Shown here piece after piece: positions 28,336 to 53,181 of a stretch of 53,181 nt of DNA. The position numbers were made by a program, and so were the translations under genes. The stretch spans positions 186,001 through 239,181 of the forward strand of contig QPGO01000135.1 in NCBI GenBank assembly GCA_008632985.1, in the 5' to 3' direction. Positions within the stretch are counted from its first letter, which is position 1; the number at the start of each line of letters is the position of its first letter. The notes under the pieces were generated by a model, which searched no databases, was not told the origin of the DNA, and worked only from the letters and a program-made list of their open reading frames with translations. Origin of the DNA: Psammoneis japonica (taxonomy: Eukaryota).

Positions 28336-29278
28336 TGACAGGATTTAAACAAGATTTTAGTTTATTGCACATAATTGTGTGCTCTTAGTTCCGCACGCGT
28401 CACGCGATGTAGTTTGCTTTCGAGCCACACGGCTCACAAGAATGACAACAGCAGTGCTGACATCAACGACACCAGTCTTTCGGCTCCTGCAACCGTCTCT
28501 GCACGGAGACTCATCTGCCATTTAGACAGCAGCAAGGAGCAATTGTTTTCTTCCATCCAGTCATCTTCAATTTCTGTCAGATTAACAGTCTCGTTCAATT
28601 TCATCCATTGAGTGTTCATCACAGTCATCGAGAAAATTTCAACGACGCGCATCGTTGGTGGTGGAAGTACACACCCACCTTCTTCACTGCTGAATGTTGG
28701 ATTGAATCTTTACGTTTGGATTTGTCCAACACCTGCCGTCCTTGGATGTGTTTATTCAACGTTGGTCAGGAATTCCCGAACTCTCAGACATCCGAGATTC
28801 CGGGTTCCCTGCAGCAGATTCTACCCTGGTTGGCAGACAGACCAATCCATCCGCTAGCCTTCACGTGCACACAATATAATCGTCTGACTCTGGCCCTGCC
28901 CCATGCACGCCAAGTCTACTGCCTCGTATCTACACCGGATTACTGGTCTTCTACAGTTCTACAAGGTCCACGGGGACGACTGCGAGAGGAAGTAGTTAGT
29001 GATTACAGCCTACGTTGGGGCAAGGGTGCATTTCCCATGTTTGTTTGTCCCTCCACAGCACCAAATTTGGCCGGCCCGATCGGGTTATCCAACCGACATA
29101 AAACAAGAATGGTTCAGAGGTCTTGTCCACCTCTAGTTAGCTTGTCAGCAGGGGTTTTTAACCCGTTGCTCTCCGATCTCAGGCAACCCAAAGTGTCACC
29201 AGCTGTGGGTTCGGACGTGCTGGCACAACTCTGCAGACCGGACAGGAAGCTTGGCATTTAATTACAAACAGGACATCA
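28336..29278 (+). repeat. 5' LTR (~943 bp) of Copia C copy 2
   Basis: Starts TGACAGGATTT, like the PPT-adjacent copy at 10332, and ends ...GGACATCA about 125 bp before the gag ATG. The 3' end is supported by the fragment ending at 5555. Confidence 0.65.
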
Positions 29279-31545: not shown

Positions 31546-32409
31546 CTGGTCATCATCCGCACACAGTCTGTCCATTGCAGGACAGACAGGCTGACAATGT
31601 GAAGATGTCAAGTGTGCAATGAGTGCTGGGGCAACACAATCATTATGACAGCCACCCACTGAGAAGTTGTGGTGCTTCACAAATTGTCTTGCTAGTTTGG
31701 GTGATAAGTTCAAATGCTCTGGCAAGGTGTTGGTTCCCCTGCTGCATCATGGGCACAGCAAAACCTGGAGAGTGCGTTTCGTGGCTCAAACCAAACATTT
31801 GAGGAGCCTCTCCTTTCAGCAATTGTCTCTGTTTTCTTAGATGAACCAGCCTGAGAGCCCCAGATGACTGGCTCAGGCATGTGTTGCATCAACAATGGAA
31901 TGCCAACAATTACAACATCACTTAAAGAACTTCTTACATTAGTTTGGTTGGATGAGCCCCTGATCCATCAAAAATCTCCATTCCAACAGCTTCCGGCATC
32001 TCAAGCACTTGAAAAACTTTGTTGTTCATTCCAACCACCAACAATTATTGCCATTGACCACGCATGGTGATAAAGGAGTCAACGGTGGCATGCACCTCTG
32101 CTGGTGAGGTCTTGGGCACATTCGCACTCTGTTGGCTAAACGGCAATGGGCAAATGTGGGTGTGACAGGATTTAAACAAGATTTTAGTTTATCACACATA
32201 ATTATGTGTGCTCTGAGTTCTGCATGCGTCGCGCGATGCAGTTTGCTTTCGAGCCACACGGCTCACAAGAATAACAACAGCAGCACCGATGTCAACAACA
32301 CCAGTCTTTCAGCTCCTGCAACGGTCTCTGCATGGAGACTCATCTGCTGTTTAGACAGCAGTAAGGAGTAATTGTTTTCTTCCACCCAGTCATCTTCAAT
32401 TTCTGTCAG
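31546..32409 (+). repeat. Direct ~864-bp duplication of 27718-28580
   Basis: Near-identical sequence and ORF translations; includes the LTR start junction. Confidence 0.9.
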
Positions 32410-33319
32410 GGTGAGTCAGTGAGGTGCAAAAAACATCACTCAAATCGAAACTTTGAGGAGGAATCGCCACACAGTGTCCTTCCATTGGGGGTAAAAGAGA
32501 CTGTTGTACCCCGATTCCTCCTCAATTGTCAACATTGACGACCTCGGAACAGTACATTCATCATGGTTGATGGCTTTTTTTCCCACACAAAAAGCACGGA
32601 GAACGCGGATGACGGACAAGCAAAAATCAAAAACATTCAGTCGATTTGTTGGAGCTGTGCAATGCAACTCTCAAGTGCAGTCTGCTTGCTCTAACATGTG
32701 CTGGGGGTACATACGAAATTTCAGTATATGTTATAGAGAGGGTGTGTGTTATCCCTCCCTGGCACAAATCTACGTAAATTGATCCTGCACACGTAGAAGC
32801 TGCACGAGGTTTTACACAGGGCCCCAGCAGATCTTGCGCATGCGCCAGTGCACCAAAAGTAATAAGAAAGGGCATTATTTACAGGTAACGGGGAAAAAAT
32901 GGTCTCCATACGGTGCAGTCCACACCGGTACTACTATGTACATACGCAGCACAGTGGCCATCGCCGAACACCTCTCTCGTCTGTCGTCACTGCAGCACTC
33001 GTTGGCCCTTTTCAAAGAGTCCCTCCCTTCATCAATTCTTTGCTTCTACCACAAAGACGACCAGGACTAGTTCTTAGAGGTATGTCATTGCCAATGAGGA
33101 TGTTTAGAGTCATTGCAAGTCTAGTCTAATGAGCCTTCATCACCTCAAACATGGTCTTAGAACAGTGATGTCTGGCCTTCGTCCGTGGGGGTCAACGCAC
33201 GCACGCACACGCATGCATTCATTCCTTCCAAAGTCGTACAGCTCATAAAGCCTATTGTCATCCTTCAGTACGTAGGGTGTTCTTGTCTGGTGAAGAAGGC
33301 GAGAGGGTAAAGAGGAACG

Positions 33320-35370
33320 ATGGAAACGATGAGATGGGCCGAGCCGGGTTCGCCGCATGACGGTGGTGGGCCGCCCACTATCAAGAACCACTCGGTGACC
33401 TACTTCAATGCGTAAGTACTCCAATCGCTTCCCTGCCGCAATTCCACCTTCTATCTCTCTATCTCACAATCGACGATTCAACAACACCGCTTTGTAAGCC
33501 ACCTTTATTGCTTTGGAGGTTATGATGGGAGGCGCAATCACATGACTTTATTGCTTTACTCGATTCACTATCAGACATGGATTGCTCCCCTTACGATTCA
33601 CGCTGGGGAAGAGGCATCTTTTGCAACTGGCTCTCCAGGTGATGTTGTTCTTACGGGCACACCTCCACCCGGCCGAAACGGCCACACAGCGACCTTAGCG
33701 GTAGATCCTGGGTTCCACGAGAATGGACGAATTATTATTATCGGTGGGTGGCTGGGAACTGGACCCCTGGCGGCGTCCGACATGTATGTTCTTGATGTTA
33801 CTAATTGCCAAGGCCGCCATTCCCTTCGATGGTATCAGCCAGTTGTAAAAGGAACCCCCCCTGGCCCGTGCAACATGCACAGTGCAGATTATCTTGCGTC
33901 GCGCAGGGAAGTGTATGTGTTCCGTGGAGGGAACGGGCGTGAATACCTGAATGACCTACACGCGCTTAACGTCGACACGTACACTTGGCGGAAAGTGACT
34001 ACCTCAGGATCTTTGCCCCAACAGAGAGCTAATCATTCGAGCGCAGTTCTCGATGAAACCGCTGAATTGTTCATTTTTGGCGGGTGGTAAGTGGAATATG
34101 TTCGTTCTTATTGCGTTGGAACGTGCTGCTTTAACGCTGTCCTGTCTGAACTCCTTTCTTAAAGGAACGGAAAGGAACGTCTGAACGACATCCATGTACT
34201 GAACACGGAGAATTCCACATGGACCTGCCCCGAAGTCGATGGCGTCCTACCTCACCCCCGGGCTGGAATGACCTTGACGGCGCTTCGGGGACGTTTGTAC
34301 CTTTTCGGAGGCAGTGGAACGAGTTCGAAATGCTTCCAAGATCTCCAAATACTCGACCGCAAGGATATGGTATGTTTTGCGCTCCCAGTGTTCCATTGAA
34401 TTGCAGTGTATTGACTCGCCTCTTCTGTGATTTGTAGAGATGGTTGGACGTGGTGCAGCACGAGGAGGCTCCAGCGACGGATTCGTTCATCCGACACGTA
34501 GATTCCAATGGTAATCGTGATTCAGCGACGCGATCACTGAGATCAAACGGCAGCCAGGCGCGAGGTGCAACCAGGGACGAGACGAACACTACGCGAGTCG
34601 GCATCGCTGACAACGCTATGTCTGAATCATCGTCCCCTACGAACAACGGCGTAATAGCCCCATTTGGGTTGGGCTTTGATGCTACCCCCAACCCTAATGA
34701 CGAAGATGGTCTGGCAACAGTTGTTGTTCACGGGCCTGGTCCAGGTCGCAGAGCGGGACACACTGCCACTGCTGTGAATCGGAGGATATATGTTTTCGGT
34801 GGATCATGTGGATCCGACTATCTGAATGACTTCTTTGTACTTGATACCGACCCCCCTCCTCGAGCCATCGTTTCAGAACCCACAAGCCTGCAGCGTTTAG
34901 AGCGATCTCTGCGTCGTTTTCACGACAATGACGAGTTTTCTGATGTGACGTTTGTGGTGGAGGGTCAGAGAGTGTACGGGCATAAGTTGGTTCTATCGGT
35001 TGTCTCGGATTGCTTTCGTGCGATGTTCACAACTGGCTTCCGAGAAAGTGAGGCTGGAGCAGAGATCGAAATTCCAAATTGCTCGTATCATGCTTTTCTG
35101 GCCATGATGGAATATATATATACTGGGCAGACGCCGATTGCTGAAGTGTCTCGTGAAGGTAGCGAAGGGATAGATAAAGTCGTGGATTTGTTGGAACTTG
35201 CTGATCAATTTTTTCTGGACCATTTAAAGCAACTGTGCGAGAAGATACTTCAACCGATGGTGAATCATGACACGGCAGAGTACTTGCTTCATGTGTCGCA
35301 GAAAACAAATGCACCTCAGCTGCTATCAGTATGTGAACACTACCAGAGGAATCAAGGCGGCGTTAGATAA
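33320..35370 (+). CDS. Kelch-repeat plus BTB/POZ protein (LZTR1-like architecture); join(33320..33411,33499..34086,34165..34369,34438..35370), 605 aa
   Basis: Three GT-AG introns (GTAAGT, GTAAGT, GTATGT donors) give a continuous 1818-nt frame. Kelch motifs 'LYCFGGYDG', 'IIIIGGW', 'LFIFGGWNG', 'LYLFGGSG', 'IYVFGGS'. BTB 'FSDVTFVVEGQRVYGHKLVLS...FRAMF...EYIYTG'. Confidence 0.93.
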
Positions 35371-35752
35371 TGGTCTCCATCATGGCTTTTTGGATATCTT
35401 CAAGTGTTAATGTAGTCATGAATGAGTTTGGAAGCATTGTGATTGTACTTTATGTTGGGGATTGGCTTGGTCGTGTCTCTTAACATTCATACTCTACCGA
35501 AACTTCTCCTAGGGCCCTATTAGCTATGCTTATTGCTTATGTTTAACAATCCACTAGTCTCGTTGAACACGATGCAGTTGGCGATGTGTAATGACGTGTG
35601 TTCATGCGGTTCCAACTCGAGCACTTGGCATCCGAGCACCCCACATCTTTTTCTGGTCAACAGGAGCTGCTTAGCTCTAGCCGCCATCAGTCTTGACGTA
35701 CGACAAGCGGGATAACCTACTGAAAAAATGAACCAGATATTCACCGCAGCAG

Positions 35753-36610
35753 TCAAAATTGCCCTGTCAGAAATGCCCACAACTCAACATTCAATACGTC
35801 AAAGTTTTCTTCGTCGCAAAGAGGTTCATTATCGAACGTGTCACAGGTTCCGGTTGAGCCCCGTTGAAAATCCTGCTCAATGCATAAACCGAACGAGCCC
35901 TTATCTCCACCACCTCCAAACGCCAACATTTTATGACCGACATCACAAAGCTGGATGTAACGATTAAGCCCAGTCCACTTGAAGACACGGAGTTGTCCTT
36001 CGGTGAAACGGTACAAAAAGGCCTGGGCACTTCCATAGAAACACGCACCTACTGCAAGCGAATGATGCTGAGACACCCAAGGGCTGTCCGCGAAGCCTCC
36101 AAAGACATCCCCACGGGTTGTTTTTAGTACCAATAGCGTTCTCGCAGCCCCTTCAACTAGGTGCATGAAGGCATCGAAGGAGTCGCCGTCGCGCGCCAAA
36201 CTGTACAGGCGACTCCAGCGGCAGTGAGCTACACTTGCCGGAAGAGCGTCGTTCGCAATTCTAAGCATCTGATCTTCGCTAAGTATGTACGGACAAAATG
36301 GGTGAGAGCTATTAGGCTCGTCATCAATGCGGATGCCAGCAATCCAGGTGTCAGTTCGCTCATTGTCCATCTCAACGCTCACTGACATCCCCTTGCCCGA
36401 CATTGTTGTAGTCGGTATGGATACTTTCAGATCTACACATGACACTGGTGGACACGCTGCGACTGCCGACCCTTGTTGAAGCCGTCTTCGTTGATCTTCG
36501 ACTTGAGTCTCAAGCAAATGTCGCTGACGCCTCTCACGCTGTAGCTGAAGAAACCTCATCCCTGCTCCAAAGAAGCCGATTTCCGATGACGCCGCAGCGT
36601 CATCCGTCAT
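35753..36610 (-). CDS. TLDc-domain protein (OXR1/TLDc family), 285 aa
   Basis: 'WSRLYSLARDGDSF', 'GDVFGGF', 'FYGSAQAFLY', 'LAFGGG', 'GSTGTCDTFDNEPL', 'VELWAF'; first ATG at 36610. Confidence 0.92.
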   Translation of the reverse strand: MTDDAAASSEIGFFGAGMRFLQLQRERRQRHLLETQVEDQRRRLQQGSAVAACPPVSCVDLKVSIPTTTMSGKGMSVSVEMDNERTDTWIAGIRIDDEPNSSHPFCPYILSEDQMLRIANDALPASVAHCRWSRLYSLARDGDSFDAFMHLVEGAARTLLVLKTTRGDVFGGFADSPWVSQHHSLAVGACFYGSAQAFLYRFTEGQLRVFKWTGLNRYIQLCDVGHKMLAFGGGGDKGSFGLCIEQDFQRGSTGTCDTFDNEPLCDEENFDVLNVELWAFLTGQF

Positions 36611-36677
36611 TCCCACGCAATGCTCTTAGTCAACACTAATTCTACCGTAAAACAAACTGACTCTCTGTTCTGTCGCT

Positions 36678-36727
36678 CTACAGTGCAGTAGCTACTGTAG
36701 CTACAGTAGAGTACAGTACGGTAGAGA
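36678..36727. promoter_or_regulatory. CTACAGTAG/CTACTGTAG-type short repeat cluster upstream of the TLDc gene
   Basis: ctacagtgcagtagctactgtagctacagtagagtacagtacggtagag, ~70 bp upstream of the ATG. A regulatory role is inferred from position only. Confidence 0.35.
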
Positions 36728-36783
36728 GGAGAACTCGTACGCGACCATTTTTTTGTCAGCGCTAAGACTGTATATTTCATTAA

Positions 36784-37182
36784 GGGGGGTCACATGCTAC
36801 TTTTTTAGCTCGAATTTGGCCGAATGGCTCGTGATTTTCATGATTTTTCCTGAATTTCACCGTGCTTCACCGTGGCAATCCATGCCATGCCATCAGTCTG
36901 AGGGAGGTTGTCCGTCCTTCAACTCTCATCCATTTTGTGTTCGTTGTGTGTCAAAGGTCACAACATGTGCGCCAAACAATGTTTGAGGACGGACCACTGC
37001 ATTGTGAAGAAATGTTGAAATTGCCATCATCGTCGTGCTTCAATCACGGTGCCTCATGTTCTCATTTTCGTGCACGAATTGTGTGAGTGTGAACAATTTT
37101 TGTGTTCAAAAATGAGCACTGTGAATGACCTTGTTCAAATGCCATGAAAATTCCAGGACAACAAACACAGGGATGACCCCCC
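36784..37182. mobile_element. Putative MITE (~400 bp) with GGGGGGTCA TIR and TTAA/TTGA flanks
   Basis: TTAA|GGGGGGTCA ... TGACCCCCC|TTGA; the TIR is short. Confidence 0.5.
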
Positions 37183-38059
37183 TTGACATGTCATTGTTTG
37201 CAAGAGAGAAAAGTGCACATTGTCATGCATTCAATGCAGTCACATGAGCAAGGAGTGGCTGTTGCGTGCAAGTTACATTTTTTGTGCACGGAATTCTGAT
37301 AGATTCCAGCACGACAACCATTGCACTGGCAGGGTTCTTTGGTGGTCTTGTCAGTGTGGCATCAACAGCGTCTGAAGACATGTGGCCAGCATTCCATCTT
37401 GATCAGCAAAACAACCCAACTGAGTTGTGATCCCTCAATGTCTGCAAAGGCACAGACCAGCACCGCCCTTGCACCGGGACGCCTGGAGCTGACCTGGAAT
37501 GAAGGGAGACGAGATCCCTCAAGGCAGCCAATGATGGGTCACCGGCAAAGTTGTCATGTTTGTTCTCATGCCAAAGCAGCAGCATGCTTCTGAGCACAGC
37601 TTTTGCCACTTGCTGGCCAGCTTTGATGAGATCATGCTGAGCATGGCTTTGGCTTCTTTGCCAATCAGCTCGTCACACAACACACAACAAAAAAAGAGCA
37701 AAACAACAGCATTGCTCAAAGAAGCAGGGCTTGCGACACTTGTGCTTTTTCTCTCATTTAAGACTGGCCACGTGGAAAGTTGCTGACAGAGCTCAAAACA
37801 GCTCGAATTGTTGATTTTCAGGTGTGGACATCGATGGAAAGCTCTCGTCGTGCATTTTCCAGCCATGCATGCGTTGTTCATTAATTCTTTTCCCCAATGA
37901 ATGCAGGCCGGTAAAACATCTCAACAGTCAAAACAATTGGTCATAAATTGCATTTGCACATGAGGACCAATTGTTTGTTGCATGATTGTGCTCTGCACAC
38001 TTTTTCTCAATGAATGTTTTGGGAGCTTGAGAGCATGCGTTGGCACCTTTTTATGTGGA

Positions 38060-39000
38060 AAGTCTCATTTGTGGTTTGCCAGGTCTTGTTCTGGTGTCTT
38101 GGACAATTGTGATTTCACGCTGGCATCTGGAGTGTGAATGTCCACCACCATGTCTGTCCCTCTGTCCCAAAATCTCACAGCTGGAACATCTCCATGGTCA
38201 CCATCCTCGTTGGCATTTGTGTTGCCCGAGGAACTGTTGGAGTTGCTTCTGTTTCCCAAGATGCTGTGACCAGCAGGGTTGATGAGAGGCTTGCCGGCCA
38301 CATGAGCAGGAAGGCTTGCAAGCTGCTCCAATTGGGTCGCTTGGGTCATCACACACTCCACCCTGTCGTGAGATGACTGGACCCCCGTTCTTGCACTGAA
38401 GGGCATGATTGACAAAGAATTTGCAGCCGTGCCCATCACAAAGCTTGGGGAGGTCCAGCGGAGCATTGCCATGGTGCAGATGGAGCACATGTCACAGAGC
38501 TCTTGGTGTGTGAGAGTTCCATGACATTCAGCCCTGACAGGTGCACTGATGGCCATGCTCCAGTTTTGGTGCTGCACACTTGATGGCTCTGGCCTTGAGG
38601 TCAGGTGGAGTGCTGAGGATCATTTTGAGTGTCTCCTTGCACATTTTAACATTCTTGCTTCACTTTGCATGTGGTGTCCTTGTGGACTGCAGAGAAGAGA
38701 ACTGAGAGCAGTTGCAAAGTGGGTCAATCACATGTGAGCATGTGAGAGTGCTTGCTTCACAGTTTTGAGCCACAGACTCCATTGGACGAGCAATGGACAG
38801 TCCCAACAATTTTGTTTGGGAGGGTGGAAGGTGCCAGACTTGGGTCGTCATCAGCCAAGATCTCACAGACCAGTGCTGGAAGAAATTTGTGCCGCATCAC
38901 ATGCTCCACTTTTGCAAATGATTTGCCACAGTCCTTGACTGAGCAGGACCATCAGAGACCCACAGAAGGGGCCATTGGTCACAGGTCATTGAACCCCACC
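38060..39000 (-). mobile_element. 3' fragment of an RLE-type non-LTR retrotransposon (CRE-like): CCHC finger plus restriction-like endonuclease
   Basis: 'PLDLPKLCDGHGCKFFVNHALQCKNGGPVISR' and 'DHGDVPAVRFWDRGTDMVVDIH'; frameshifted. Confidence 0.75.
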
Positions 39001-39349
39001 ATCCCATGTCATGTGCATGCGTGCAAATGTTTGTTGACCCCCCTCCTGATTGAAATCAACATTTGCTTGTTGGGAGTGCAACATTTTCATTGGTTTTCAC
39101 CATCCTGATTGGTGCATTTTGCACTTGCTCCCAGACGTGTGCAATTTAATGTGCACTTGTTGACTTGAATGCCAACATGCCAAGTCACATGGCTGCATCA
39201 TTCCCTGAACTCTGAACAATTGCATTTCATTCCAACTGACAAATGTTCGTTTTCACATTGTGTGTGGCATTTTCGCCAAAAGCACTGAATTTCCGTCCTC
39301 ATGATGAATGTCAATCATTCAGCAGAATGCAGCTTTAGAAAATCTCCAA

Positions 39350-39710
39350 CTCGATTGTAATCCTGTTTGCAATTCGATTGCGGATCGCGATTGAAACGAT
39401 TGCAATCTGCTGATTGTTTGTCCAGTGCTGGTCACAAAGATTGCAATCATGTTCACGATCGATTGCAACCGATTCGTGCCTAAAATTTAGTCGTGAATCG
39501 GGATTTACAGCAAACACAGGACTAAAAATTGACCAAAACGTGGTGTCCATTCACGAAAAATGCATGGGGCACCCCTGCGTGGGGCGTGTGAGTTCCGCAT
39601 GGGGGCCAATGGCGATCACAATTGCAATCGATTGTTGCATGTGGCAAGCGTGCGTGCATTGCAATCTTTCGATTGCTGCGGAGCCACATGCAATCGATGG
39701 CTGCAATCCT
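39350..39710. repeat. Array of palindromic (C)GATTGYAATC(G) motifs around a central near-palindrome
   Basis: Copies near 39353, 39398, 39439, 39461, 39621, 39658 and 39689; tgcatggggcacccctgcgtg at 39561-39581. Confidence 0.6.
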
Positions 39711-41077
39711 TGAATGTTGGGAGAAAGTTAACAATTTTACAACGCTGCAATTTTCACCTTTTTCTGTTCCCCCTCCAAAACCCATCCTTGCCGTTAAATC
39801 ACAATGTTTTGTTTGCACTGTTTGGAAGACCAATCATGTGTGGGGTGTTTGTCCCTTCCACTTGTGATCTGCAGATCCAATCCCCTGTGTTTTTGGTGAA
39901 TCAGTGCACAACCGTGAAAGCAGCATGACAAGGAGTCCGCAGGATTCCATGTCCACTGTGCCGCGATCGCCCATGGTGGTTTGCCTCTCCAGCTTTTGCG
40001 ATCGTGCCCCACCTCAAAGTCATGCCCAAGCAAAAATGCGTCTCTCTTCTCCTTGCCCAGATTTGTTTTGAGGATGCCGAATGTAAAACCGGTGTCACGG
40101 CTTGCTTTGTCACGTCTCTGGACCTTGATGGTTCATTGCTTGATGTTTTGTCACCCTCCGATGTGGCAGCAAGCCTCTCTGATGGTGTCTTTGACATCAG
40201 TGACTCTCCAGCAGCCTTTGCAAATTTGCCCAAGGAGGATTTGAAGGGCTCTGTCGATCAAGAACAAGGCAATTCTGCATCCGGTGAGGCGGCATCAGTG
40301 TCCTCTGGGAAGGACAAGCCAGCCAGTGGATGCATTCTAGACATCGATGTCAACTCAGACGATGACTCCAATGGCAACGACTCGACCAGCCAAGGCAACT
40401 CACATGCCAGGATTGCGTTGGCATCCGGAGACCTTGATGGTTGTGCCAGTGATCTTTCTTTTTCTGACAAAAACAACAGAGATGATGATTCTCTCAACAG
40501 AAGTGATGGTTCTGTGCTGGATGACCAAGCCAAATCATGCACCAATGGTGTTGGGGGTGCCTGCACAACCAAGGCTTAACTAAAAAATCATTGAGACACA
40601 GCACCCCTGTTAGCACTTTCTTGAGACTTCCGAATGGACTCCCTCTGCTGATCTTGTGGCTCTCCCCTTTGTTTGTTACAACCACTGGAATTGAGCCTCC
40701 CATTTCTTCATGGAAGTGTTGTTGGTCAACCTTGTGGTTGCCCATTCTCTCTGGCATAAAGATGGCTTTCATTGTGTAAAAAAGTCGTGGCTGGTTGTGT
40801 TTTCATGGCAAAGGTGGGAGGCATGTTCTGGAGTGCCGCAAGCTGGCCAAATCCTTCTCCAATCTTTCCCGATTTGGTGGAAATCTCCATGCAATTATTG
40901 ATGATTTGTGCAAGATGACAGTGCGTGATTGACTTGGCAATGATCCCTGCTTCCTGTGGATCACCAGCTTCACACATTTTTTGTGCAATGCCTGAGCATT
41001 GCTGCTGACATGACTGTTGCTTTCTGCCTCATGTCGACAAAGAGAGGGGCAATTTTTTCCACTGGTCCACCATCATT

Positions 41078-41159
41078 GTTTCTGGCTGCAAAAAGAGGAA
41101 GCAGTTTGTGCTGTTTTGGTTTCTGGCTGCAAAAAGAGGAAGCAGTTTGTGCTGTTTTG
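41078..41159 (+). repeat. Perfect 41-bp tandem duplication
   Basis: gtttctggctgcaaaaagaggaagcagtttgtgctgttttg x2. Confidence 0.9.
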
Positions 41160-44100
41160 TAACAACGTTTTGACCCTGATGAACATGCAGCAGAGGTTGA
41201 AGGATGGAAAGGTTGCCAAGAAGAAGAAGATCCTCACCAAACATCTGGAATGTGTCAAGGCTTGTGCAGAGACTCATGCCTTGGCAAAAGGCATGGCACA
41301 AAAATGCCAAGAGTTGGTGGAACGTGAGCTCCACTCCACCTTCAAGTGTTCCTGCAAGAACACAAATTGGGTCAAGTTCTGCAACCTGGCAATTGTGTGA
41401 TCACATGTTCATGATCTCACACATCCATGCCTTTCCCGGGAAGCCAAGGCAAAGTTTGTCTCTTCTGCCAAGAGGAGGAAGGAGAGCAAGGAGTCCTCCA
41501 GTGTGTCGGCTGGTTCTCTGGCACCTACACCACCCACTTGGCCGATGCCCTGTGTGCTGCCAGTCCCTCCATCAGCACACTTGCCTCCCAGTTGCAACCG
41601 TTGGGTGACGACAATGTCAAGTCGTTTTCAGACAGTGAGCCATCGTCTGCAGGCGAGTTGTTGTTTCATGATGACCCCATTCCGAAGGACCCTGACACAG
41701 TTGCTGTTGATCCATCCTCAGGAGTTGCTTCTGCAGCATCTCCATCAAAGCCAAGCACATTGGCAAGCTCCACAACTTCCTTGTCAATCGGTGATTGGTT
41801 CCCATGAGGTTGTTGTTGCAGCTTTGCATCACCTGCAGATGTTGTGAGATGTGCTCCTTGCGTCTGTCAAGATGTGCTCCTCGCGTCTGTGTTTTTTATG
41901 ATCCAGATGACAATGATGAGGACAACGAGCAATCCACCAATCCTGAGTTGAGCTTGCATCATTCTCCAACTGACTGTTGCCCACTTGTCAATCTATGCCA
42001 TCATCTTCACTCCTTTGAGATGACGCAACCACTTCCTTCTGCTGCAACTCACAATCGAGAGCCAGTGGTTGTCCCCCAATGGCTCAAGGCATCCAGGATG
42101 ACACCACCATTTTGCCCTCTTCCTCACATCTCTGGCAGAAACACTTTGGATCTCTCCAAGTTGATGTCATCATGATTGCCCGTTTTGCACTTGAACATGG
42201 CTGTTCCAATGCCCTGCGTGATGAGAAAAACAAACACGACAAGAACAACAATGATGATGGGTTCAACCAGGAAGAGAAAAAGGATTGGATCAATTTTGGT
42301 GCCTGTGGTCAGTTGCACAAATTGCTTGATGACAGTGAGAAAGTCCCAACAAGTGGGTTTTGGAGTTTTCAAGAAAGAAAAAGATGTTGTCATTCGCAAT
42401 CAGATCAAGTCTGTGATTGCGGACATCTGTGATTCCATGCAGAGGTGCCATGATGAGCCAGAAGTGGAGCATTTTGGCAATCACCTTCAGTGCTGCAATG
42501 CATGGGATGGCACTCCACGATGGGCTTGGTTGCAAAGCAGCAAGGAATGAGCTTTGCATTGTCCATGTTAAGATTGTGCTTGATCATGTGAAGATTCGTC
42601 CAGATGATCAAAACCATGTTTGTTGCAGATGCACCAAGACAGGAGCTCTCCTCTGTGTTTTCATCCCAGACAAGTTCAGGAACGTTGTTTCGGTCAAGTT
42701 CCTCGCCAACAGCCGCTGACGTGTGGGTGAACATTTTGACAAGCATCCGACATTGTGACCATTGCAGACAATGATGCTGAAGCATGTCACCACCATAAAT
42801 CGCACCTGCAAGGAGTTCTCCTTGATGTGCAAGGGTCCTCATGGTCCACCTGGAGATTTGAACCACCATCATCCCCAGAACATGATTCTTGACAATCATT
42901 GCCCATGCAAGAAAAAGGCCCTCGACAAGGCTGGTTTGATTCTTGTAGATGGGTTGGAGTTTCCAACCTCTTGCATCCGGGATTTGTGGTTGTCCGTGGG
43001 GATCACAATCCTCTTTCTGCTTCGAGATGCACTTGGAATCCACAAAGTTGTGAAGATGGCAATCATGGCTTCTTGTCAAACCAGTTTCCACTGGTTTTTT
43101 CACATTGTGGCATTGAGTGCAAGGAAGAGTTGACTGAACCCAGTTCCGATCCCACCCTTGTCTGATGCCAACTTGCTGGGAAGCTGTTTGGCACTGCCGC
43201 CGGAAACATTGGAGTTGCTCCACATCGTCTGAACCCCAGCGGCTGTGACTTTGTCAAGACTTGCTGCAAAGTTTCCTCCGTCACTGGCCACAAGAGGAAA
43301 TCTGATGAATCCACCTGCATGAGAAGCAACAGAAAGCACATGTGCCACGTCTCTTTCTCCTTTTTTGGAGAAAGAAGTTCTTCCTGATGATTCTGACATT
43401 TAAGAAATTCTCAGAGATTGTGAATCCAACAATGATGATGCTGAAATGGATCTTGCGGGAGATGATGATCTTGGTCTTGACGGCCTCCAGATGTCAGGCA
43501 TCACAGATGAAATGGTGGGTGTGAATCTGGATTTGTTGAAATGGATTGACAAGCACACCGGAACTGCAGATTTCCATCATGCCATGCTGGAGAGGCAGTT
43601 CTGGCTTGCACTTTTAAGAAATTCCCAAGAGGAACTGACATCAACAAGTTCCGTTTAATTGTGGTTGTCCAAATGCCAGTCGGTGCCAGAATCATTGTTC
43701 ATCCCCATGCTGATTTGAGAAATCTTGTTTGTCCAGTTTCCAAACTTGACACTGCCAAGCAGTTGGAGCACTTGGACCCAAAGGATTGTGCAGCGTGTGC
43801 TGACTTGCTCATGGTCAAACATGGAACAAAGCGTCACAGTGGCGATGGCTGGAAAAAGGGATCGAGAAGGCATTGAAGGAGACTGATGGAGCGGCGATGG
43901 CCAGAGAAGAAATCCTTGAACTGGCATTAAAGACAGAGAAGCTTGCGCAGTTGAGGCCAACATGGCTTCTCCAACTGAAGATTGTGCGGAGGCTCTCATG
44001 GTGGCAGAGCATCGTTTCCAGTGACATTGGAAGAAAATGGTTTTGTGAGCCCACCACTGATGTAAGTCCACCACATTGTCTGCATGGCAGTTGCTCTAAA

Positions 44101-44289
44101 AGTTGCATTTCTCAATTCCCTCAGCACTTTCCCATCTCAACATCATTTCCATTATCCAATCATAAAAGATCTTTGCCCAGTCCAAGTGGGGTTTAATCAC
44201 CATCACTCGGTGTTCCCTCCTCTGCTTTTAATTGCGCAATTGGGGGGGACTGGGTCTTTGTGTTGCTTGGACATGCAACAGAGAATGCT

Positions 44290-47200
44290 GTGACACATGT
44301 CGAATGTACACTGACATCCCGCATTGACGGTCTTCTGGAGGATTGGAATTCTTGAACACAATGAGTGAACAATCTTGCATCCCCGAAACTGGACTCAGTC
44401 ACCCCTGTGGAGGCTGACTTGCAGTCAACAGAGTGAACGATTGCCTTGGCAACCTGACAGGAATCCTTGTAGAATCCAACGACACATGCAGGGTGTGGTT
44501 TGCCAGATGTGCATCGTCCATGTCAAAATGGACTTCCGCCCAGTCAAACCAGGGGCCCTCTTTGGAACAGCACTGTGGGCAAGCTCGGAGGTGGTCACCG
44601 TTGGCAAGTTTTACTTCTGTCCATGTGTCGAACCCAGGCCAGTCTGGCTCCAGTTCTTGGACAGCTTCAAAGGAAGCTCGGCATGGCGTGCCCATTTTCT
44701 CACCAGCCAGGATTTTGTTCCCATGTTCATCAAGTGCAGATGCATCATTGAAACAATTGCAACAGGAGACATTGTGTGGCATGCATTGGGTCACCTTGGA
44801 TTCTCCATCACCATTGGCAATGAAAGAGGCATCATCTGCAAGACCACCAACTGCTGGGATGTCTTCTGACTTTTGCATGGCAATCTCATCAAAGCCCCTT
44901 CCACACAGAAGGGCCTCGCAAATTCGTTCACATGTCTGTTGGAGGAAAGTGGCCTCACTGTCTTGCAATGGTGCTTCACAACACAATTCTCCATTGGGTG
45001 AGAGAACTGGCATGGATTTTGAACTTCCACACATCCTCCCCTTCACATGTTTCCTCTGTGACCAACAGATCCACCTTCTTCTTTGACACAGTTTTGCACA
45101 ACCTTGAGTCAACACATCTCTTGACATTTGAAAGCATTCCCGGATTTCTTTGTAGAAGACAATCACAGTGGTCCCTGATGATGGGACATGCAACAGAGTC
45201 TAGGATGTCACGGGGTGGGCAAAAATCATCCTTCTTGCTTGTGACAGTTTTCAAAATCTTCCACGATTTGACAAACAACTGATCTAGCTGAAAAACTCAT
45301 TGAAGTCATCCTCCAGCAAAAAAGCAAATCCGTGGAGCTTTGGGTGCTTGTTGACACACTGGATAATTTCCGATTTGCAATTAAAAGGATCTCTGGTGCT
45401 GTGGACCAAGGCAAAAAACATGTCCTTCCTGTTTTTGTCACATTCTTCCTTGGTGCAGGCTTCCTTTTGGGCCACCTCCTGAGCAGCCTTTCTTGCATTT
45501 TCCCTGTTGCGGCAGCCTCCCAATTGACTCTTTGTCACTTGTTGTTGCATCCATTGGCAGTGGTGGATGCATGAGATCTTTTGCTCCTGCTGCAACTCTT
45601 CATGTTGGAAGATGAACTGTTGTCAATTCCTCAGGAAACGTTGGAAGATGGCTTGTCGCTTGCCTTTGCCTTTTTGTTCTTGCTCTCCTTTGGTGGTTTG
45701 CACAGGGTGGCAAGTTTTGAGGCAGAGGGAAATGTTTCACACTTCTTCTTCTGTTGTTCATGTGCCTTTTCCATTGTCTCACATGGCTTGAGCAATTGCA
45801 TTGCTGCACACAGGCAGAACAGTGAACCCATTTTTTCAGAGTGGGTCTGGAGAGTCATTCTGCTAAAGCCAGAACTTAAGCAACCTCTTGGGCATTGTGC
45901 CAAGGCCATGGACCTGCAGCTTCCAACAACAGCTTTCAGTTCCATCTCAAAGTTTTCTTTCTCGGTCTTGGTCAGTCCAAAGTGTGAGACTTGCATGACA
46001 TTCTCCGCACCACCAGCTTCCCAGGAATGGAGGTGATTGTCAGCTGCAGTCGACACCGTCAAAGGCATTTTGCTGCAGGTGCATTGTGTGCAGATGGGAA
46101 AGAAGGCTGCTGCAAGCTTCTGTGGTTGTCTCTTGAGGCAACCATCCAATGGACTGTCCTTGCTGACTGCTGCAGTGGAGCCGGTGTGTCCAAGCATGAG
46201 CTTGTTAAGATGGGACACAATCTTCACATTGATTGGAGAACACAAAAGGCCTGGCTCATTGGTTGGACGGGAAGTGTTTGTAACATCATTGGCAGAACAC
46301 ATGTAGAAGCACTGCACTCGACCATCACCACCCCCATTGGTTGCTTTCCATCCACAGACAAAGTCTTGTGACTTCTGGTCCCAAAATGTCAGCCCTTGTA
46401 CAAGGAGGATGGGCATGAGCTGGGGAACACCACCCAAGTTTAAACCATCATGAGGGGGGGCTCAGCCTGCAAGGCCTTCAAATCATCCAAGAGAAAAGAC
46501 AACATGTCATGGCAAGCCTCCATGTTTGAAGCAGAAGACTCACCCGCTTGTTGTTGCAGTGAATCATCTTTGTTCACATTGCCATTCTCATCAAGTGTGC
46601 CACTTGCCCCCCCCCCCTTGTTTGCACTCAGCATGAACCCCAGGTGATGCCAAGCACAATCATGCTCCCACACATGCCTCTTGGCAAGAAGAGTGCAAAA
46701 CCACCAGGGTTCGAGGTGATGCCTTTGACAGGCATCAGTCCCTGTCTGATTGGCGTGCAAGCTGATTGGCAAGAGCAAGTCTTTCTCACAGTCAAAGTCC
46801 TCAGGGAGGTCATCACATGTGTTGGAGCACCATTTGTTGGACATGATCTTGCCAAGATCATGCTCATCAACAGGAACAAACTTGTGGAAATGTGCCTGCA
46901 TGGACTTGCTCACATCAAGATTGTGCTGGTCATCAAACATCGAGTGGGCGAGCAAATCACTCAACATGTCCTGCATGCAGAAGCAAGTGACTTTTCCATC
47001 CACCAATGATGTGAGTGTCGGGCTGGAGCAGGAAAACCTTCTTACAGAGATTTTTTGCCAACAAATCCCACCCAAGACACTGGGAACAATTGAATTTCCA
47101 CTTCTTGCAAAATGGTGGTGACAGGGCAAGCAACTGCCCACAAAATTGATGAGTGGCACCGGAATTGTCACACAGCACAATCAGCTCCAATGAAGCTTCC

Positions 47201-47631
47201 TCTGCAATTGAAAAGGTTGGTGGATCAGGTGCCTTGGTGTCCAAGGGATCTGATTTGGCAGTGGTGGGTGGGACGGTGGGCAGATCTGGGGGCAAGGTGG
47301 ATTCTTCAGAAGACTCATCCAGAGAAGAGGACAAAGAAGCAACAAGAGCACCAGGGAACATTGTGCAAGAAGAGGAGTTGTTGTCATGTTCATCGTCCTC
47401 CTCCTCCTCTTCCTCCTCCTCTGCTTCTTCATCGGGAGGGGGGGGTGTGGGCTCCGAGTCTTCTTCGGGTGGGAAACTGGGTGGGTCATCATCTCCATTG
47501 AAGCAAGTGCTGGGATTTGCTGATTCATCTTTTTCAGAGGCAGCAACAGATGACTGACAAGCAATTTGCTGTTCTTGGAAAAACAAAATGGTGGCTTGCA
47601 ACAACTGGCTCATTTCAGTTGTGGCAGACAC
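44290..47631 (-). pseudogene. Plavaka-type (CACTA/CMC-related) transposase, decayed
   Basis: Acidic N-terminus; 'LLLPISLHANQTGTD...LEPWWF...WHHLGFM', 'CHDMLSFLLDDLKALQ', 'WDQKSQDFVCG'; C-terminal 'LRACPQC...PWFDWAEV'; several stops and frameshifts. Confidence 0.7.
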
Positions 47632-48149
47632 ACTGGGACGGGCTGCATTTTGCCTGCATTGGCGGTGTCAGTGGCAAAAAGGCATGCCAAGCAAAGAGTC
47701 CAATTAGAAAAGGCAGGCTGTGGAAGTGGGGTGAAGCAATTTGATGCTTGTTCACAACCATTTGTTGGCAAGCAGATGTCTGATTGATCATTGAATCAAA
47801 TTGTTGAGTGGAGACTGGGTTTTGTTTTTGAATGAGACTCAATTGGCATGCTGGCAACAGCCATTAGAGAGTTGGCCATAAAGAGACATTGCACATCATG
47901 GCACACACACATTCAGACATTGAAGATGCAAAGATTTGAATTGGATGGAGGATCCATTTAGATTGGAATGCAGATGCACAGCCAAAATAAAAAATGTGGG
48001 GGAAACACCCTTTTCAGGCAGGCAAAAAATGTGAAGAAGGGAAAAAGACAACCGTTGCATGCACATCATCCACAAGACTCAACCACATCTGTCACCTCAC
48101 TTCTGTGTACTTCAGCACACACTGGAAAAATCACTGCAGCAGCAGCGGA

Positions 48150-49547
48150 GGACAATGGTCATTGTGGAGCTGCAGATGAGTTCTGCTGAATGGATGGTGG
48201 ATCAAGCCAAGGTCATGAAGGACATGGCAAAGGTGAGAGAATGTGTCAAGGAAACATTGTTCCTTGGTGTCACATTCATGTTCAACAACAAGGAAATGGA
48301 GAAAATGGGAATGCTCCACAGAGATTGTAAACAGAATTGTGGCCCCAAGATGATGGACAGGATGCTGCAGGAACCACCCCAAGCCAGAGCAAAAATGCAC
48401 CTGCGCTTCCTGTGGCTCATGATGAAACAAAAAAAGATGCATCAGGAGTGGCTGGCAATGAAGAGGTCAAATGCATGCCAGGCACAGCAGGAAAAGTTCC
48501 ACAGTGAGTGTAAATGGAGGATGCAACAAGAGCAGCCCCATTGTGCTGTTGCCAACAGTGTTGTCTCTTGCTTTCCCTGCCAAAAATGAAGCTCTTTGTG
48601 CATGCTGCAATGACAACAATTGGATCTTGCCATCCATGGAAAGATTCCAAGATCACTTGGGCAACCCAGCTTTGCAGATGGCATTCTACGACTGCATGCT
48701 GTGTCCGATTGTTGGAGACACATGCTGGAAAGAGTGCATTTCCAAGGACAAGAGGATGAGCACAGCATGTGCTGAGGCGTTTGCTGCCCACATGCTCCTC
48801 AAGAACAACTGCAATGCATGGTGTGCCAGCTGCAAGAGCCAAAACAAGGATGGGACTTTGATGTCAGATTACGACATGGAGTTGGTTGATGATGGAGGCC
48901 TGACGGACTAAGAGGGAAGCAACGACTTGTGCAAGACCATCATGCCAGACCTTGTGACAGCCCAGGAGAAAGATGACCAGGACAAGAGTGTGTTTGTGCT
49001 GCTCCAGAAAGATCCACAAGAGCCATCGGAGGAAGGTGCATCTGTGCAAGAACTAAAACAGAAGTTCAAGGACACAAGGGAAGAGTCCATCACAAAATGG
49101 GATGTGATGGTCAAGAAGATCAGAGACAAACCAAAGATTGCAGCACAAGTCATGGCTCTGACCAAGGTTGCAAAAGTGCTCGTGGACATCCAAAACAATG
49201 CAGATGCATCCAGCAAGAAGAGAAAGGTTGTCAGGACACTCAAGCATTTCACAGTGGCAAAGCCAAAAGACACAGACGGAAATGCGGGACCAAGGGGGAA
49301 GTGCAAGACACCAAAGAAGAGCAAAGGGTGGTTGCCAAAGGCCAACAAGTTCTTTGTTGACATGGTCATGGAGATCAAGCAAGATGTTGCAAGCAGATGC
49401 CTTGGCCGGTGGGAAGAGCTCTACAAAGCTGTTGCAACTGAGCAAGATCAACAGGCTGCAGAAGAAACACAACACAGCTCGGATGATGAAGACAACCACC
49501 AGGTCAACTGTGCCAAAATCTGTGAACTGGAGTTGGCGGCAGTTTAG
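48150..49547 (+). pseudogene. Transposon accessory gene, divergent from the Plavaka-type transposase
   Basis: ORFs 48059..48589, 48471..48911 and 48927..49547; homologous motifs with 17276-18510; possible intron near 48509-48585. Confidence 0.6.
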
Positions 49548-50836
49548 TCAAGATTAACTCAGTGGCAACAACTTGCATTCACACTTGTTGACAATCGATT
49601 GCAGCAGAGACATGCAACAAATGGATGGGACAATGGAAATGACTGTTTGAACATGCAAGTCAACTGATTGACTTTGACAGCAAAGATTGAAAACGAATCC
49701 CAACACTGCATTTGGTCATCACCCAGTCGGCAATGACAAGCCAAGTGAAATCCCATAAAGCAACTTGTTTGGCATTGTAAACTGATTGAGTTGCAGCTCA
49801 CTCATTGGGATTGATGACTGTTTGTTGATGTCTCCAGACACTTGTTGGTTTGCATGGACATTTGTTCATTTTTGGTCACACCTGTTTGTGACAAACAGGT
49901 GTGATTCATGTTGAACAGCAATGATTCATTATAAAAAAATTTGTGTGCTGACACTCACACACACTGTCTGCAACATTGTTCATTGGTCCAACCACAAGAC
50001 AATTCATAGAAACGGCCCTCTGATGACTTCTGCAGACCAGCACAGGTGGTCTGTGGGTGATGAATTTGCTGTCTTGGTGAGTTCTTGGATGACTGAGGTT
50101 AATGACTTGGCTTTTCCTCCAACCAATGGTCACGTGCATCCATCTCACTGACAAAGCCTCCGAGGCAGGGGCCACCAGATTTGACAGTGAAGCCAAGGTC
50201 TCTGAAGCATGCCTTGGCATTCTCCAGGTTGCACTCTGGGACTGCTGGGATGTTCTTGGAGTTGTCAGCAGGGCAGTGCTTGCATTTTGGGATCTCTTAG
50301 ACCAATGGAAGAAGTCCTGGTCCAAAGTTCAGGCAATTCACCAAACTTGTGCAAATGATCTTCCTCTGGAATCCTCCCATTTGGGTGTGTCTCCTAAAGT
50401 GCCTCAAACATGGCATCTCAGTCAGAGATGTGCCCAGCTGCCCCCCCCCCCCCCTTGGGTTTCCTCATGGCACCATTCCATTGAATGTCTTGGCATGCTG
50501 CTCTGGCATCTCCTCTTTCTGATTGGTTTTTGATTGTTTTCAGGTTGCAGCTCAGTTGACTGAACTAACATCTTGTGCTTGTCTGCGTCCCAATCATCCA
50601 AGCACCTGGTGAGCAAGGTTCTAATGTCCCCAGCCCCTTTTTCATTTCAATCTTGCTGTGAAACACAGCTTGGTGCACCGTGAACCTTTCTGAGTTCTAT
50701 TTTCACATCTTGACTGCATGCAGCAACTCTGCCAATGCTGCAATGAACTGTTTTTCAATGGCACCATGTGGAACATTGTTTCATGGTGATTGATGGGGCA
50801 CTGGCCGGTGCCAACACTCTTGCCAAATTTTGCCGA

Positions 50837-51054
50837 CATGCCACCAATCAGATGAGAACTTTTGTTGAGATGATGGGTCTCACCATGTGCCTCATGTGTG
50901 ATTCATTCCACACCCCAATTGAAGTGGTTCGGTGTGACATTGGGCATGCCACCAATCAGATGAGAACTTTTGTTGAGATGATGGGTCTCACCATGTGCCT
51001 TGTGTGTGATTCATTTTCCACACCCCAGTTGAAGTGGTTTGGAGTGACATTGGG
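50837..51054 (+). repeat. 108-bp tandem duplication
   Basis: catgccaccaatcagatgagaacttttgttgagatgatgggtctcaccatgtgcct... at 50837 and 50945. Confidence 0.9.
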
Positions 51055-52780
51055 GTCGTCTTGTGATGGGACAATGACTCTCTCTGGGTCTTCTCCTTCC
51101 TCTGGCTGACTGCTTTCTTCCCCTTGAGGTGGCATCAACCACCTTGCCATCTCCACCTGCATCAGAGTCCATTCTTGATTGTTGGGTGTGGAGTTTTCTT
51201 TGCTGGCTTTGTTGGCAGCCTTGTCTTTTTCTTGTTTGTCAGTTGCGCCAGGGGCATTGTTGATGAGTTGACAAATTTTCAGCTGAAGTGAACTAGATTC
51301 TGGGGAGGTTTGAAGTTTTCATAGTTTCTCATCTGAGTTCCTGTTGCTTGGGGTGCAAGTTGGGAGTCCTTCCTTGCCTGGCCTTCTTCCACTTAGAAAA
51401 TTCTTCACATTTGTCATCTGTCTGTTCTTGGCTGATGGACTCCTTGATTGCTGTCTTTCCATGTGTGGGCATCTTCTTCTCACATGTTTGTGAAAGTGGG
51501 CCTCATCACAGCCATTGTGCACATCATCATCCAATGACCATTGGCGACCATTGTCCATTGCATCTGTGGCCAATTGCCAACCGCATCTGTCCTCTCCACT
51601 TTTTGATCTCACCACAGCAGATTTGCTCACAATCTAGATGATCACTCGCTTTTCACATGCTCTCAACTTTTAAGCAGTGCTTCAACTTTCTCTGTCACAA
51701 ATGCGTGCATGTTGAGCATGGACCATGATGGATCCACCATCCAAGAAACCCAAGATCTCCCGGTCAGATGGGGGCCTGGTGAATCCTCTGTCCAAGACTT
51801 TCACCCCAAAAACATGCATTTCACACACTGATGGATGCAACTCCTTTGTGGCACACCCTGCCACATCTCCTGACATGGGTGACACCAAACACTGCTTGGC
51901 ATTTTAAATCAACAAGAGCACCACATCCAACTCATCTGGCCTCACCAACTCTGATTGCCTTGCAGTCATGGGCAAACTGTGCAATTCTGCCAGTCTTGTC
52001 AACATTTCAGAGGAGGAAAGGAAGCACACAGGGAAGCCAGCACTGCACAACCCTGCCACCTTGACTGTCATGTCACACCACAATGTCTCCAGCACCACAG
52101 TTGGCAACTGTGTCAATCTAGCCACCAGGATTGCCTGGCTTGTCCAAGATCAACCTGTGGCTGATTGTTGTCCAACCAAATGGGTTCATGCACATCAAGG
52201 TGAAAGGTGCTGCAAACCCACCAAGTCTTGACAACTCTGTCAAAGAAACCAATGTCATCTTCTTTGTGTGTTTGTCCATGAAGGATCAAGTGACAGTCAA
52301 CGCAGCTGGCAACAATGTCCACTTGTGCAGGTTTGAAGTCTAAAGCGCCCAGTGACTGTGCAACCCTTAAAGTGGAACCCTGTCAACAGCTCATCTAAAT
52401 AGATCAGGGATTGTCAAGCCCCTTGACTTGCAGAGCCTAAACTTTCAACAAGCTCATTGTGCATGCTAGCTGCAATTTCATTCTGAATGCAGCATTCAAA
52501 GCTGTTGCTCCCATTTTCCTTGATGATCCATGCAAAACCCTCAGCAATGCACATCAGACTGCCACCCACCCAGACAGTGCCATTGTGTTGTCAACAGTTG
52601 TCACCAAGCATCATGACAACTGTCACGTTGTTGTCGTGATGTTTCCCAATCATCCCTCAGCAGCACATGGGGCAAAGCAATCCTCATTTCCATGCTTTCA
52701 TGGAGAACCTCACGGAAGGATCAGATTGGTGATGGAATGGAGTCCAGTGGGTTTCACAGACATGGTGAGACCACATCATT

Positions 52781-53181
52781 TGACAGGATTTGAACAGGAT
52801 TTAGGTGCGCGCGAAGCATCGCGCGCTGTTTAGTTTACCGTGCACAGTTTTGTGTGCTTTAGTTCCGCGCGTTCACGCGCGATGTAGTTTGCTTTCGAGC
52901 CACAAGGCTCACAAGAATAATAACAGTAGCCCGATTATACCGACTTACACGTCTTTCGGCTCCTGTAACGGTCTCTGAGCGGAGACTCATCTGCTATTTA
53001 GACAGCAGTAAGGAGTTATTGTTTGAATTCTTGCCATTTGCCTTCAATTTCTGTCAGATTAACAGTCTTGCTCATTGTCAACCCATTGAGCAACCGCCAT
53101 CGTCGTCGTTGATTTACCAACGACGCTATTTCAATTCTACGTGGACCTCCGTATATATTCTACATACATCAGCAAGTCTAC
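52781..53181 (+). repeat. Start of a little-mutated long LTR related to the Copia C LTRs (runs off the window)
   Basis: TGACAGGATTTGAACAGG start; ~280 bp align with 28336-28600; retains TpA and CpG. Confidence 0.75.

Follow-up and report, generated by a model that had tools for sequence, protein, structure and literature searches.

The window analysed here is a 53,181-nucleotide stretch of the diatom Psammoneis japonica (assembly GCA_008632985.1, contig QPGO01000135.1, positions 186,001 to 239,181, forward strand), at whose right-hand end lies a long terminal repeat (LTR) of a young family of Ty1/Copia retrotransposons. Three related LTRs lie elsewhere in the window (Table 1), and a sequence-only reading of this DNA had noticed that sites reading TA in the end copy read CA in one of the other LTRs and TG in others, which it took for the two-strand pattern of a symmetric TpA target. 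Comparison of the end copy with its relatives across the genome shows that elements of this family lose TpA to TpG or CpA once they are inserted. The LTR at 52781-53056 is followed by a primer-binding site and then by the end of the contig, and it is therefore a 5′ LTR.

The family was assembled from two sets of copies. A genome search with the flagged LTR gave 40 scored matches at 98-100% identity among 934 candidates; the first set comprises 39 matches besides the window's own, and 37 of these are complete elements of about 7.1 kb, which define the length and ends of the LTR and carry a perfect 5-bp target-site duplication in 36 cases. Because these copies were picked by a TA-rich LTR the first set is biased, and a second set, free of that bias, was collected with an internal probe (40 matches, 13 already in the first set and 27 new, 24 of the new ones with two LTRs). 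The alignment used below has 55 copies; 36 come from the first set, after removal of one that had an internal duplication, and 19 from the second, after removal of five whose ends were tandem or doubtful. LTRs of the form TG...CA, the 5-bp duplication, the primer site, a polypurine tract and a polyprotein with an RVT_2 match identify the element as Ty1/Copia, presumably with a CoDi-like label. Relatives are found at 55-76% identity, most of them with PF07727.

All of the differences described in the sequence-only reading are in place. The end copy has ctgcTAtttaga at 52991 where the other LTRs have ctgcCAtttaga at 28515 and ctgcTGtttaga at 32344 and, on the minus strand, at 10140; aaTAaTAacagTAgc at 52916 stands against aaTGaCAacagCAgt at 28441, cctgTAac at 52962 against cctgCAac at 28486, 32315 and 10173 (minus strand), and cagTAagg at 53006 and 32359 against cagCAagg at 28530 and 10129 (minus strand). 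When the 16 TA sites of the end copy are read in the three other LTRs, the resulting 48 cells hold TA 12 times, CA 19 times, TG five times and CG never, with a gap or another letter in 12. The three other LTRs are members of a sister family and share 76-80% identity with the end copy, which had been called near-ancestral; its TA sites are indeed intact, but it is not the ancestor of the other three. Both CA and TG occur at just two TA sites among the four LTRs, and at two CG sites likewise. With so few two-way sites, CG sites that behave alike and a sister family as the comparison, the four window LTRs alone do not settle the direction of change.

Judged from the aligned copies and from outgroup proteins, TA is the original state of the CA/TG sites. 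At the TA at 52995, the 110 LTRs of the 55 copies read TA in 47 cases, CA in 35, TG in 26 and CG in none, with two gapped. Both CA and TG were present in 229 column pairs of the 55-copy alignment, and 189 of these are of TA type, 35 of CG type and five tied. The TA-type columns (about 10,180 cells) contain TA 3808, TG 3758 and CA 2569 times, with CG in only seven cells, while the CG-type columns contain CG 1559, TG 202 and CA 109 times, with TA in a single cell. An independent polarity comes from 26 columns in which Tyr is found in 90% or more of 40 outgroup Copia proteins (from 62 full-length matches). Among the 909 cells of the copies at these columns there are 381 TGn, 334 TAn, 158 CAn, 35 TTn and one AGn codons, and no CGn, so the conserved Tyr codons become Cys or His and never Arg. 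Control columns did not behave in this way; conserved His was retained in 700 of 703 cells, and His, Trp and Gln were all retained at above 99%.

The two LTRs of one element are identical at insertion, and differences between them date from the time after it. Within 37 LTR pairs there are 415 differences, of which 331 are TA>TG (167) or TA>CA (164), in agreement with the symmetric target on both strands that had been proposed, and CpG decay in that direction contributes 37. In 57 cases one LTR has CA where the other has TG, and 56 of these fall at TA-type sites. Among 1460 copy pairs, outcomes are shared at chance level (mean z 0.05, sd 1.08), and each copy has therefore been mutated separately. 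The strands are equally affected once context is modelled (factor 1.15, log 0.14±0.11), neighbouring changes show no same-strand excess at any distance (|z|<=1.3), and per-copy strand bias is binomial. The changes thus arise after insertion, copy by copy and on both strands, scattered without strand-coordinated tracts. Between 0.18 and 0.85 of interior TpA is retained per copy, tracking the CpG retained (rho 0.63, 55 copies), the pattern that gradual build-up in the chromosome would give. Unless TpA sites, which account for 80% of LTR differences, are removed, LTR-LTR dating, repeat annotation and neutral-rate estimates for this genome carry a severe bias.

The rate of change at TpA sets it apart from other mutation in the same copies. 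Mean loss per TpA was 1.11, compared with 0.049 per CpG, a difference of about 23-fold. Expressed per adenine (two copies with masked stretches excluded), loss at TpA was about 0.55, which is about 270 times the rate of other A>G changes (252/124,688, 2.0e-3) and about 640 times that of non-CpG G>A changes (111/129,357, 0.86e-3). A competing-risk fit over 189 sites gave effects relative to A of 2.25 for C, 2.72 for T and 1.07 for G at position +1, and of 2.37 for C, 1.70 for G and 1.88 for T at position +2. On the strand that carries the A, changes fall preferentially on T-A-pyrimidine-(not A), a motif with which two independent checks agree. Of the 183 TpA that remain in 27 kb of old DNA, 81 are YTAR and 15 RTAY; the gene island of the window has 36 YTAR and 58 RTAY among its 189. 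The rare A>G changes outside TA also favour a 3′ pyrimidine (169/62,322 vs 83/62,366), a bias that resembles off-target action of the same agent; G>A changes show a smaller 3′ skew (64/63,802 vs 47/65,555).

Some interior TpA sites are nearly immune, including three conserved Tyr codons retained in 35 of 35-36 copies. The coding region was TpA-scarce from the outset, with about 7 per 250 bp compared with 17-26 in the 5′ 750 bp, and this scarcity may mean that the active lineage has long avoided TpA there. A periodicity of 124 bp in the site rates was considered and dropped, as its p value moved from 0.008 to a borderline 0.052 under a better context model.

Loss is distributed unevenly along the element, and the 5′ ~600 bp (LTR, primer site and leader) is often spared. 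The 40 matches of the internal probe include 32 usable copies, in which TpA was retained at 362 of 543 sites in the 5′ LTR (0.67), 677 of 893 in the leader, 1910 of 5019 in the interior and 245 of 576 in the 3′ LTR (0.43), and the 5′ LTR retained more than the 3′ LTR in 26 of the 32 (p 9e-5). An earlier estimate of this sparing (572 vs 242 TA) was set aside because choosing copies with a TA-rich LTR had inflated it. The TpA within the primer site is retained in 53 of the 55 copies. The 5′ LTR is itself affected in 15 of the 55. CpG is spared in the same zone, with 1232 of 1246 retained (98.9%) in the 5′ 600 bp against 13,116 of 13,718 (95.6%) inside, and losses of TA and CpG are correlated across 161 sites (rho 0.20, p 0.01). 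A closer association, in which TA changes lie near lost CpGs, was not upheld at its first strength; the odds ratio of 1.61 fell to a z of about 2 (within 50 bp) after copy load was removed.

This asymmetry bears on the end copy, which the sequence-only reading had described as young or protected. Protection by position, as a 5′ LTR, is mainly borne out. The copy itself cannot be dated, because the contig stops at 53181 and the expected 3′ junction had no match when searched for across the genome. The element at locus L031 is 99.5% identical to the end copy over 401 bp, yet its 3′ LTR retains only 4 of 17 TA. The intact look of the end copy therefore mainly reflects its position in a young family.

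A test of TA loss against distance to genes had been proposed, and with the TpA level of the flanks as proxy this distance explains little. Nine of the 55 copies have a TA-normal flank, and these retain 0.42 of TpA vs 0.34 (p 0.54); 5′ sparing is unrelated to the upstream flank (rho -0.12), and element interiors are mutated even where they adjoin TA-normal DNA. Weak positive correlations exist between the interior and the upstream flank (rho 0.30, p 0.03) and between the 3′ LTR and the downstream flank (rho 0.32, p 0.02).

Host genes are spared where foreign DNA is affected, both in the gene island at 32500-37000 and at the gene loci tested. The observed/expected ratio (o/e) of TpA is 0.44-0.57 at gene loci L116-L118, L120 and L124, compared with 0.04-0.2 in old repeats. 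Genes themselves are erased in one multi-copy array of a C5 DNA methyltransferase gene (L121-L123, L127; contigs C297 and C301), whose copies are 92-96% identical; at L121-L123 TpA o/e is 0.07-0.10, CpG is partly retained, and there is short similarity to the intact gene in L118. A methyltransferase gene on contig C10 (L117) and its broken duplicate (L126), 65 kb apart and 85% identical, are not erased, and duplication alone therefore seems not to be the trigger. This two-copy pair, together with the single-copy target in Bigelowiella described below, makes repeat pairing seem not to be the trigger either. The genome holds 27 PF00145 matches. A zinc-deaminase gene fragment lies in TpA-erased DNA at L115:1315-1773 (contig C151) and has His or Cys where its relative in L073 has Tyr; the two were compared by eye, and no DNA alignment between them was found.

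We hold it to be moderately probable that a host process mutates A:T to G:C almost exclusively at TpA in the inserted mobile DNA of this diatom, that it acts on silenced chromatin and that it proceeds by adenine deamination. The target would be silenced, CpG-methylated chromatin, as suggested by the co-sparing and co-variation of TA and CpG and by the report that young LTR-Copia elements (CoDi) are DNMT5 methylation targets in Phaeodactylum (available text of PMC9998398). The spared 5′ end would then correspond to a promoter that is unmethylated or bound by protein. The lesion may be deamination of A to hypoxanthine by an enzyme of TadA/ADAT fold acting on chromosomal DNA, a guess to which we give about an even chance; it is prompted by the clean transitions and by the need of TadA/ADAT enzymes for T or U at position -1, which the T of TpA supplies. 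In the available text of the respective papers, bacterial TadA edits UACG (PMC13170351) and Tad2/3 requires U at -1 (PMC11156358). Hypoxanthine would be fixed as G when the DNA is next replicated, with single bases changing in the course of many divisions. The effect of the process is that Tyr codons turn into Cys or His, which disables elements and leaves their frames open.

Several observations weigh against this explanation. Sequence context accounts for only about a quarter of the site-to-site variation. No hairpin-loop preference was seen in local 42-nt folds of 374 strand-sites (loop vs other p 0.2, unpaired-A rho 0.08), and fungal Tad2/3 editing shows such a preference and favours a purine at +1 (available text of PMC11156358). 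The 5′ sparing is partial and uneven, from 0.29 to 0.94 per copy, and it is weak in the 24 newly found copies alone (217 TA in the 5′ vs 166 in the 3′ LTR, p 0.02). Neither an extra or chromatin-fused TadA-like gene nor an ADAT3 was found among 5 + 10 TadA-like matches in the genome, and one endonuclease V gene is present. The sequence outcome is the same for a lesion on A or on T. Finally, the process may be a by-product and not a defence, for the family has still reached many dozens of copies.

By our reading only ordinary members of the deaminase family are present: a TadA that has an organelle-type leader, dCMP deaminases, genes resembling guanine deaminase and RibD, and one ADAT2-like gene. 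There are also two A_deamin genes, L103/L104 on contig C79 and L102/L105 on contig C40. The former, which we take to carry ADAR-like motifs, has relatives in both centric and pennate diatoms, with PF02137 as their sole Pfam domain, and it was rejected as a candidate since diatom-wide relatives and unspecific Atlas matches single out nothing. No PF02245 match (MPG/AAG-type glycosylase) was found in the genome, and 4 of 14 control genomes have one.

The same targeting with a lesion on the thymine of R-T-A, for instance a T that is oxidised or modified in some other way and pairs with G, is unlikely but fits every motif count equally well, since T-A-Y and R-T-A are the two strands of one site. 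Oxidised thymines can miscode, and the genome searches brought up no dedicated adenine deaminase. Positive evidence for such a lesion is lacking (TET/JBP genes were not searched for), and the known TadA/ADAT enzymes, as far as the available sources describe them, already require T or U at -1.

Somewhat less likely again is a by-product of error-prone repair synthesis in methylated DNA, either by polymerase-eta-like gap filling after deamination of 5-methylcytosine or by adenine excision followed by insertion of C. This would account for the co-variation of TA and CpG losses and for the weak clustering of TA changes within copies, which extends to about 500 bp (r 0.02-0.12) and includes the residual excess near lost CpGs. 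Polymerase eta targets AA as well, but AA>AG changes (2.5e-3) are not above CA>CG changes (2.2e-3) and are more than 200 times below those at TA. Transversions at TA are rare, and the absence of a same-strand pattern among neighbouring changes is contrary to repair tracts.

Editing of RNA or cDNA during retrotransposition, before integration, is very improbable, though it would explain why every copy has a private pattern, and two A_deamin genes, one presumably with ADAR-like motifs, are available for it. RNA editing is one-stranded and would be copied into both LTRs, which does not fit the equal strands and the differing LTRs seen here. Load also goes up with CpG decay, which acts as a genomic clock, and DNA without an evident reverse-transcription step, namely the C5-methyltransferase copies and the deaminase fragment, is erased too. 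Editing of double-stranded cDNA just before integration could cover part of the load.

A base-calling or assembly artefact at a modified base is more improbable still. If a base were read as G on either strand, random CA or TG would appear in the consensus, and the data of the public run X1, used as a check, may be the assembly's own, with a library type that is not on record. X1 contigs of single-copy depth nevertheless match the erased DNA with no other letter in six pieces of 485-1837 bases (36846-38029, 38004-38688, 39393-39877, 43707-44272, 44932-45652 and 50971-52807, the longest pieces), and in a seventh with one gap; made with contigs, the comparison checks base calls and is not biological replication, as X1 is maybe the source sample. 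Furthermore, an 865-bp duplication in the window (27718-28580/31546-32409, 94.6% identity, including the solo-like LTR) shares most CA/TG states between its halves, and the A>G load is graded by copy and by position.

The reverse direction, in which CG is ancestral and TA a product of double deamination, or in which classical repeat-induced point mutation (RIP) made TA from CA or TG in 5′ LTRs, would have overturned the sequence-only reading and can draw on real CpG decay (the 35 CG-type columns, and CA/TG in place of CG in 18 of the 38 CG cells that could be aligned in the three older LTRs of the window), but it is practically untenable given the near absence of CG from TA-type and of TA from CG-type columns, outgroups with Tyr instead of Arg, His or Cys, and the impossibility that one and the same site started as CA in certain ancestors but as TG in different ones.

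The closest known system is found in the chlorarachniophyte Bigelowiella natans, where, in the available text of the preprint, TpA hypermutation is described for integrated DNA of NCLDV (large nucleocytoplasmic DNA viruses) and of virophages (Mettrop et al., bioRxiv 10.64898/2026.01.13.699255). It arose de novo in 11 of 15 lines, with 231 mutations at about 1000 times background; host genes were spared, ADAT2 was proposed as the enzyme, and TpA-poor coding sequences were enriched in reverse transcriptase and DDE domains (10.64898/2026.01.13.699255). As here, that text reports TpA>TpG and TpA>CpA on both strands of foreign, largely silent DNA. The systems differ in that the Bigelowiella text concerns a rhizarian, with two viral regions (the larger single-copy) and a modest depletion (rho 0.45), whereas here retrotransposon families of a diatom are affected to near saturation (o/e down to 0.04). 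The spared promoter end, the pyrimidine preference at +1 and the co-variation with CpG are absent from its main text, to which a mutation table in the supplement adds data bearing on the motif; the words 'diatom', 'LTR' and 'retrotransposon' occur 0 times in the available text. No diatom report of TpA-erasing mutation was found in open-access papers and bioRxiv. The diatom process is a variant of one for which a single published instance was found, in another supergroup. As a second case, with thousands of events in one young family, it gives the motif, the strand behaviour and a link to chromatin, and narrows the hunt for the enzyme.

Other known systems share parts of this pattern. RIP of ascomycetes likewise disables inserted repeats through dinucleotide-specific transitions that occur on both strands, and diatoms have a RID-related DNMT4 (available text of PMC9998398). 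RIP is, however, C:G>T:A, mostly CpA>TpA (available text of PMC2621366), and thus creates the TpA that the diatom process removes by TA>CA/TG, with opposite chemistry. RIP is also triggered by duplication as such, and it acts premeiotically and depends on RID. Here the one 85%-identical gene pair is unerased and a multi-copy array erased, and strand-coordinated tracts are missing. Decay of CpG to TpG/CpA, as in CoDi elements, runs alongside and spares the same 5′ zone; it is about 23 times slower than TpA loss and cannot yield TA>CA/TG. TadA, Tad2-Tad3(-Ame1) and adenine base editors share the A>G outcome and the U/T at -1, with C favoured at +1 by bacterial TadA, and RNA off-targets of TadA-7.10 have a TAM context (available text of PMC8845244). 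In the sources available, their natural substrates are RNA loops and the fungal enzyme favours a purine at +1, unlike the present case with its lack of a hairpin effect. Adenine editing of chromosomal DNA by a natural enzyme would be a novelty in biochemistry.

A wider proposal, which we put forward only tentatively and consider possible, is that diatoms and chlorarachniophytes share a genome defence by editing of DNA adenine, in which a deaminase guided by silencing marks rewrites T-A-pyrimidine, has come near completion genome-wide in this species and lets LTR promoters escape because they are unmethylated. If true, this defence would parallel RIP and APOBEC with the chemistry reversed, and would amount to a naturally occurring base editor of adenine in chromatin. 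Elsewhere, none of 120 homologous polyproteins had at least three His/Cys at the 26 Tyr columns, and all three metagenome loci had TpA o/e of 0.74-0.84; both samples favour intact elements and show no absence.

Over the whole window, o/e is 0.19 for TpA, 0.43 for CpG, 1.67 for CpA and 1.62 for TpG, and its features are collected in Table 1.

Table 1. Features of the window, in order of position.
Feature	Position	Strand	Remarks
Sister-family LTR	10092..10332	-	Polypurine tract before, primer-site-like stretch after; TG at site 52995
Inverted sister-family Copia body	10333..15765	-	RVT_2 match; TpA-erased; His/Cys in place of expected Tyr
Sister-family LTR	28336..28579	+	80% to end copy; same primer site next, so 5′ LTR; CA at site 52995
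Sister-family LTR, solo-LTR-like	32163..32408	+	Same 5 bp on both sides; TG at site 52995
Unmutated host gene island	32500..37000	.	Kelch/BTB gene (+), TLDc gene (-); internal control, TpA o/e about 0.6
Old repeat DNA	37001..52780	.	TpA o/e 0.05-0.12 in 2-kb bins 38001-52000; CpG decayed too
Left 5-bp flank, presumed half of target-site duplication	52776..52780	+	Presumed from the 5-bp duplications of 36/37 family members
5′ LTR, young Copia family	52781..53056	+	276 bp, TG...CA; 16 TpA and 20 CpG intact
Primer-binding site	53057..53071	+	15 nt; pairs with positions 27-41 (anticodon arm) of a tRNA-Asn(GTT) gene, same genome
Start of the element's 5′ leader	53072..53181	+	Ends with contig C133; inside the TpA-spared zone

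The young element sits inserted in the old repeat DNA. Its primer site pairs with the anticodon arm and not with the tRNA 3′ end, which suggests priming by a 5′ half-tRNA; the tRNA-Asn(GTT) gene (locus L146) is one of 20 tRNA genes tested, and 22 further tRNA matches lay outside the test. A CpG-rich, partly self-complementary insert of 28 bp at 52802-52829 is present in the LTR of the young family and missing from that of the sister family.

Three of 11 open reading frames of the window have RVT_2 and gag_pre-integrs matches, and much of the window outside the gene island is decayed Copia; no transposase was named by Pfam in 11 frames of erased DNA. Between 27718 and 32413, the same 616-bp flank and 5-bp site stand both before a 5′ LTR with truncated body and before the solo-like LTR, a layout that looks like a tandem rearrangement of one insertion. 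A high-copy short repeat at the edge of the gene island (36801-36875) and an inverted repeat pair of 370 bp (15830-16197/16659-17025, 72% identity) are possibly small DNA transposons. A contig of run X2 skips three GT..AG introns of the Kelch/BTB gene, and X2 is therefore RNA-derived, though listed as DNA; one X2 contig of 946 bases stops exactly at the last base of the LTR.
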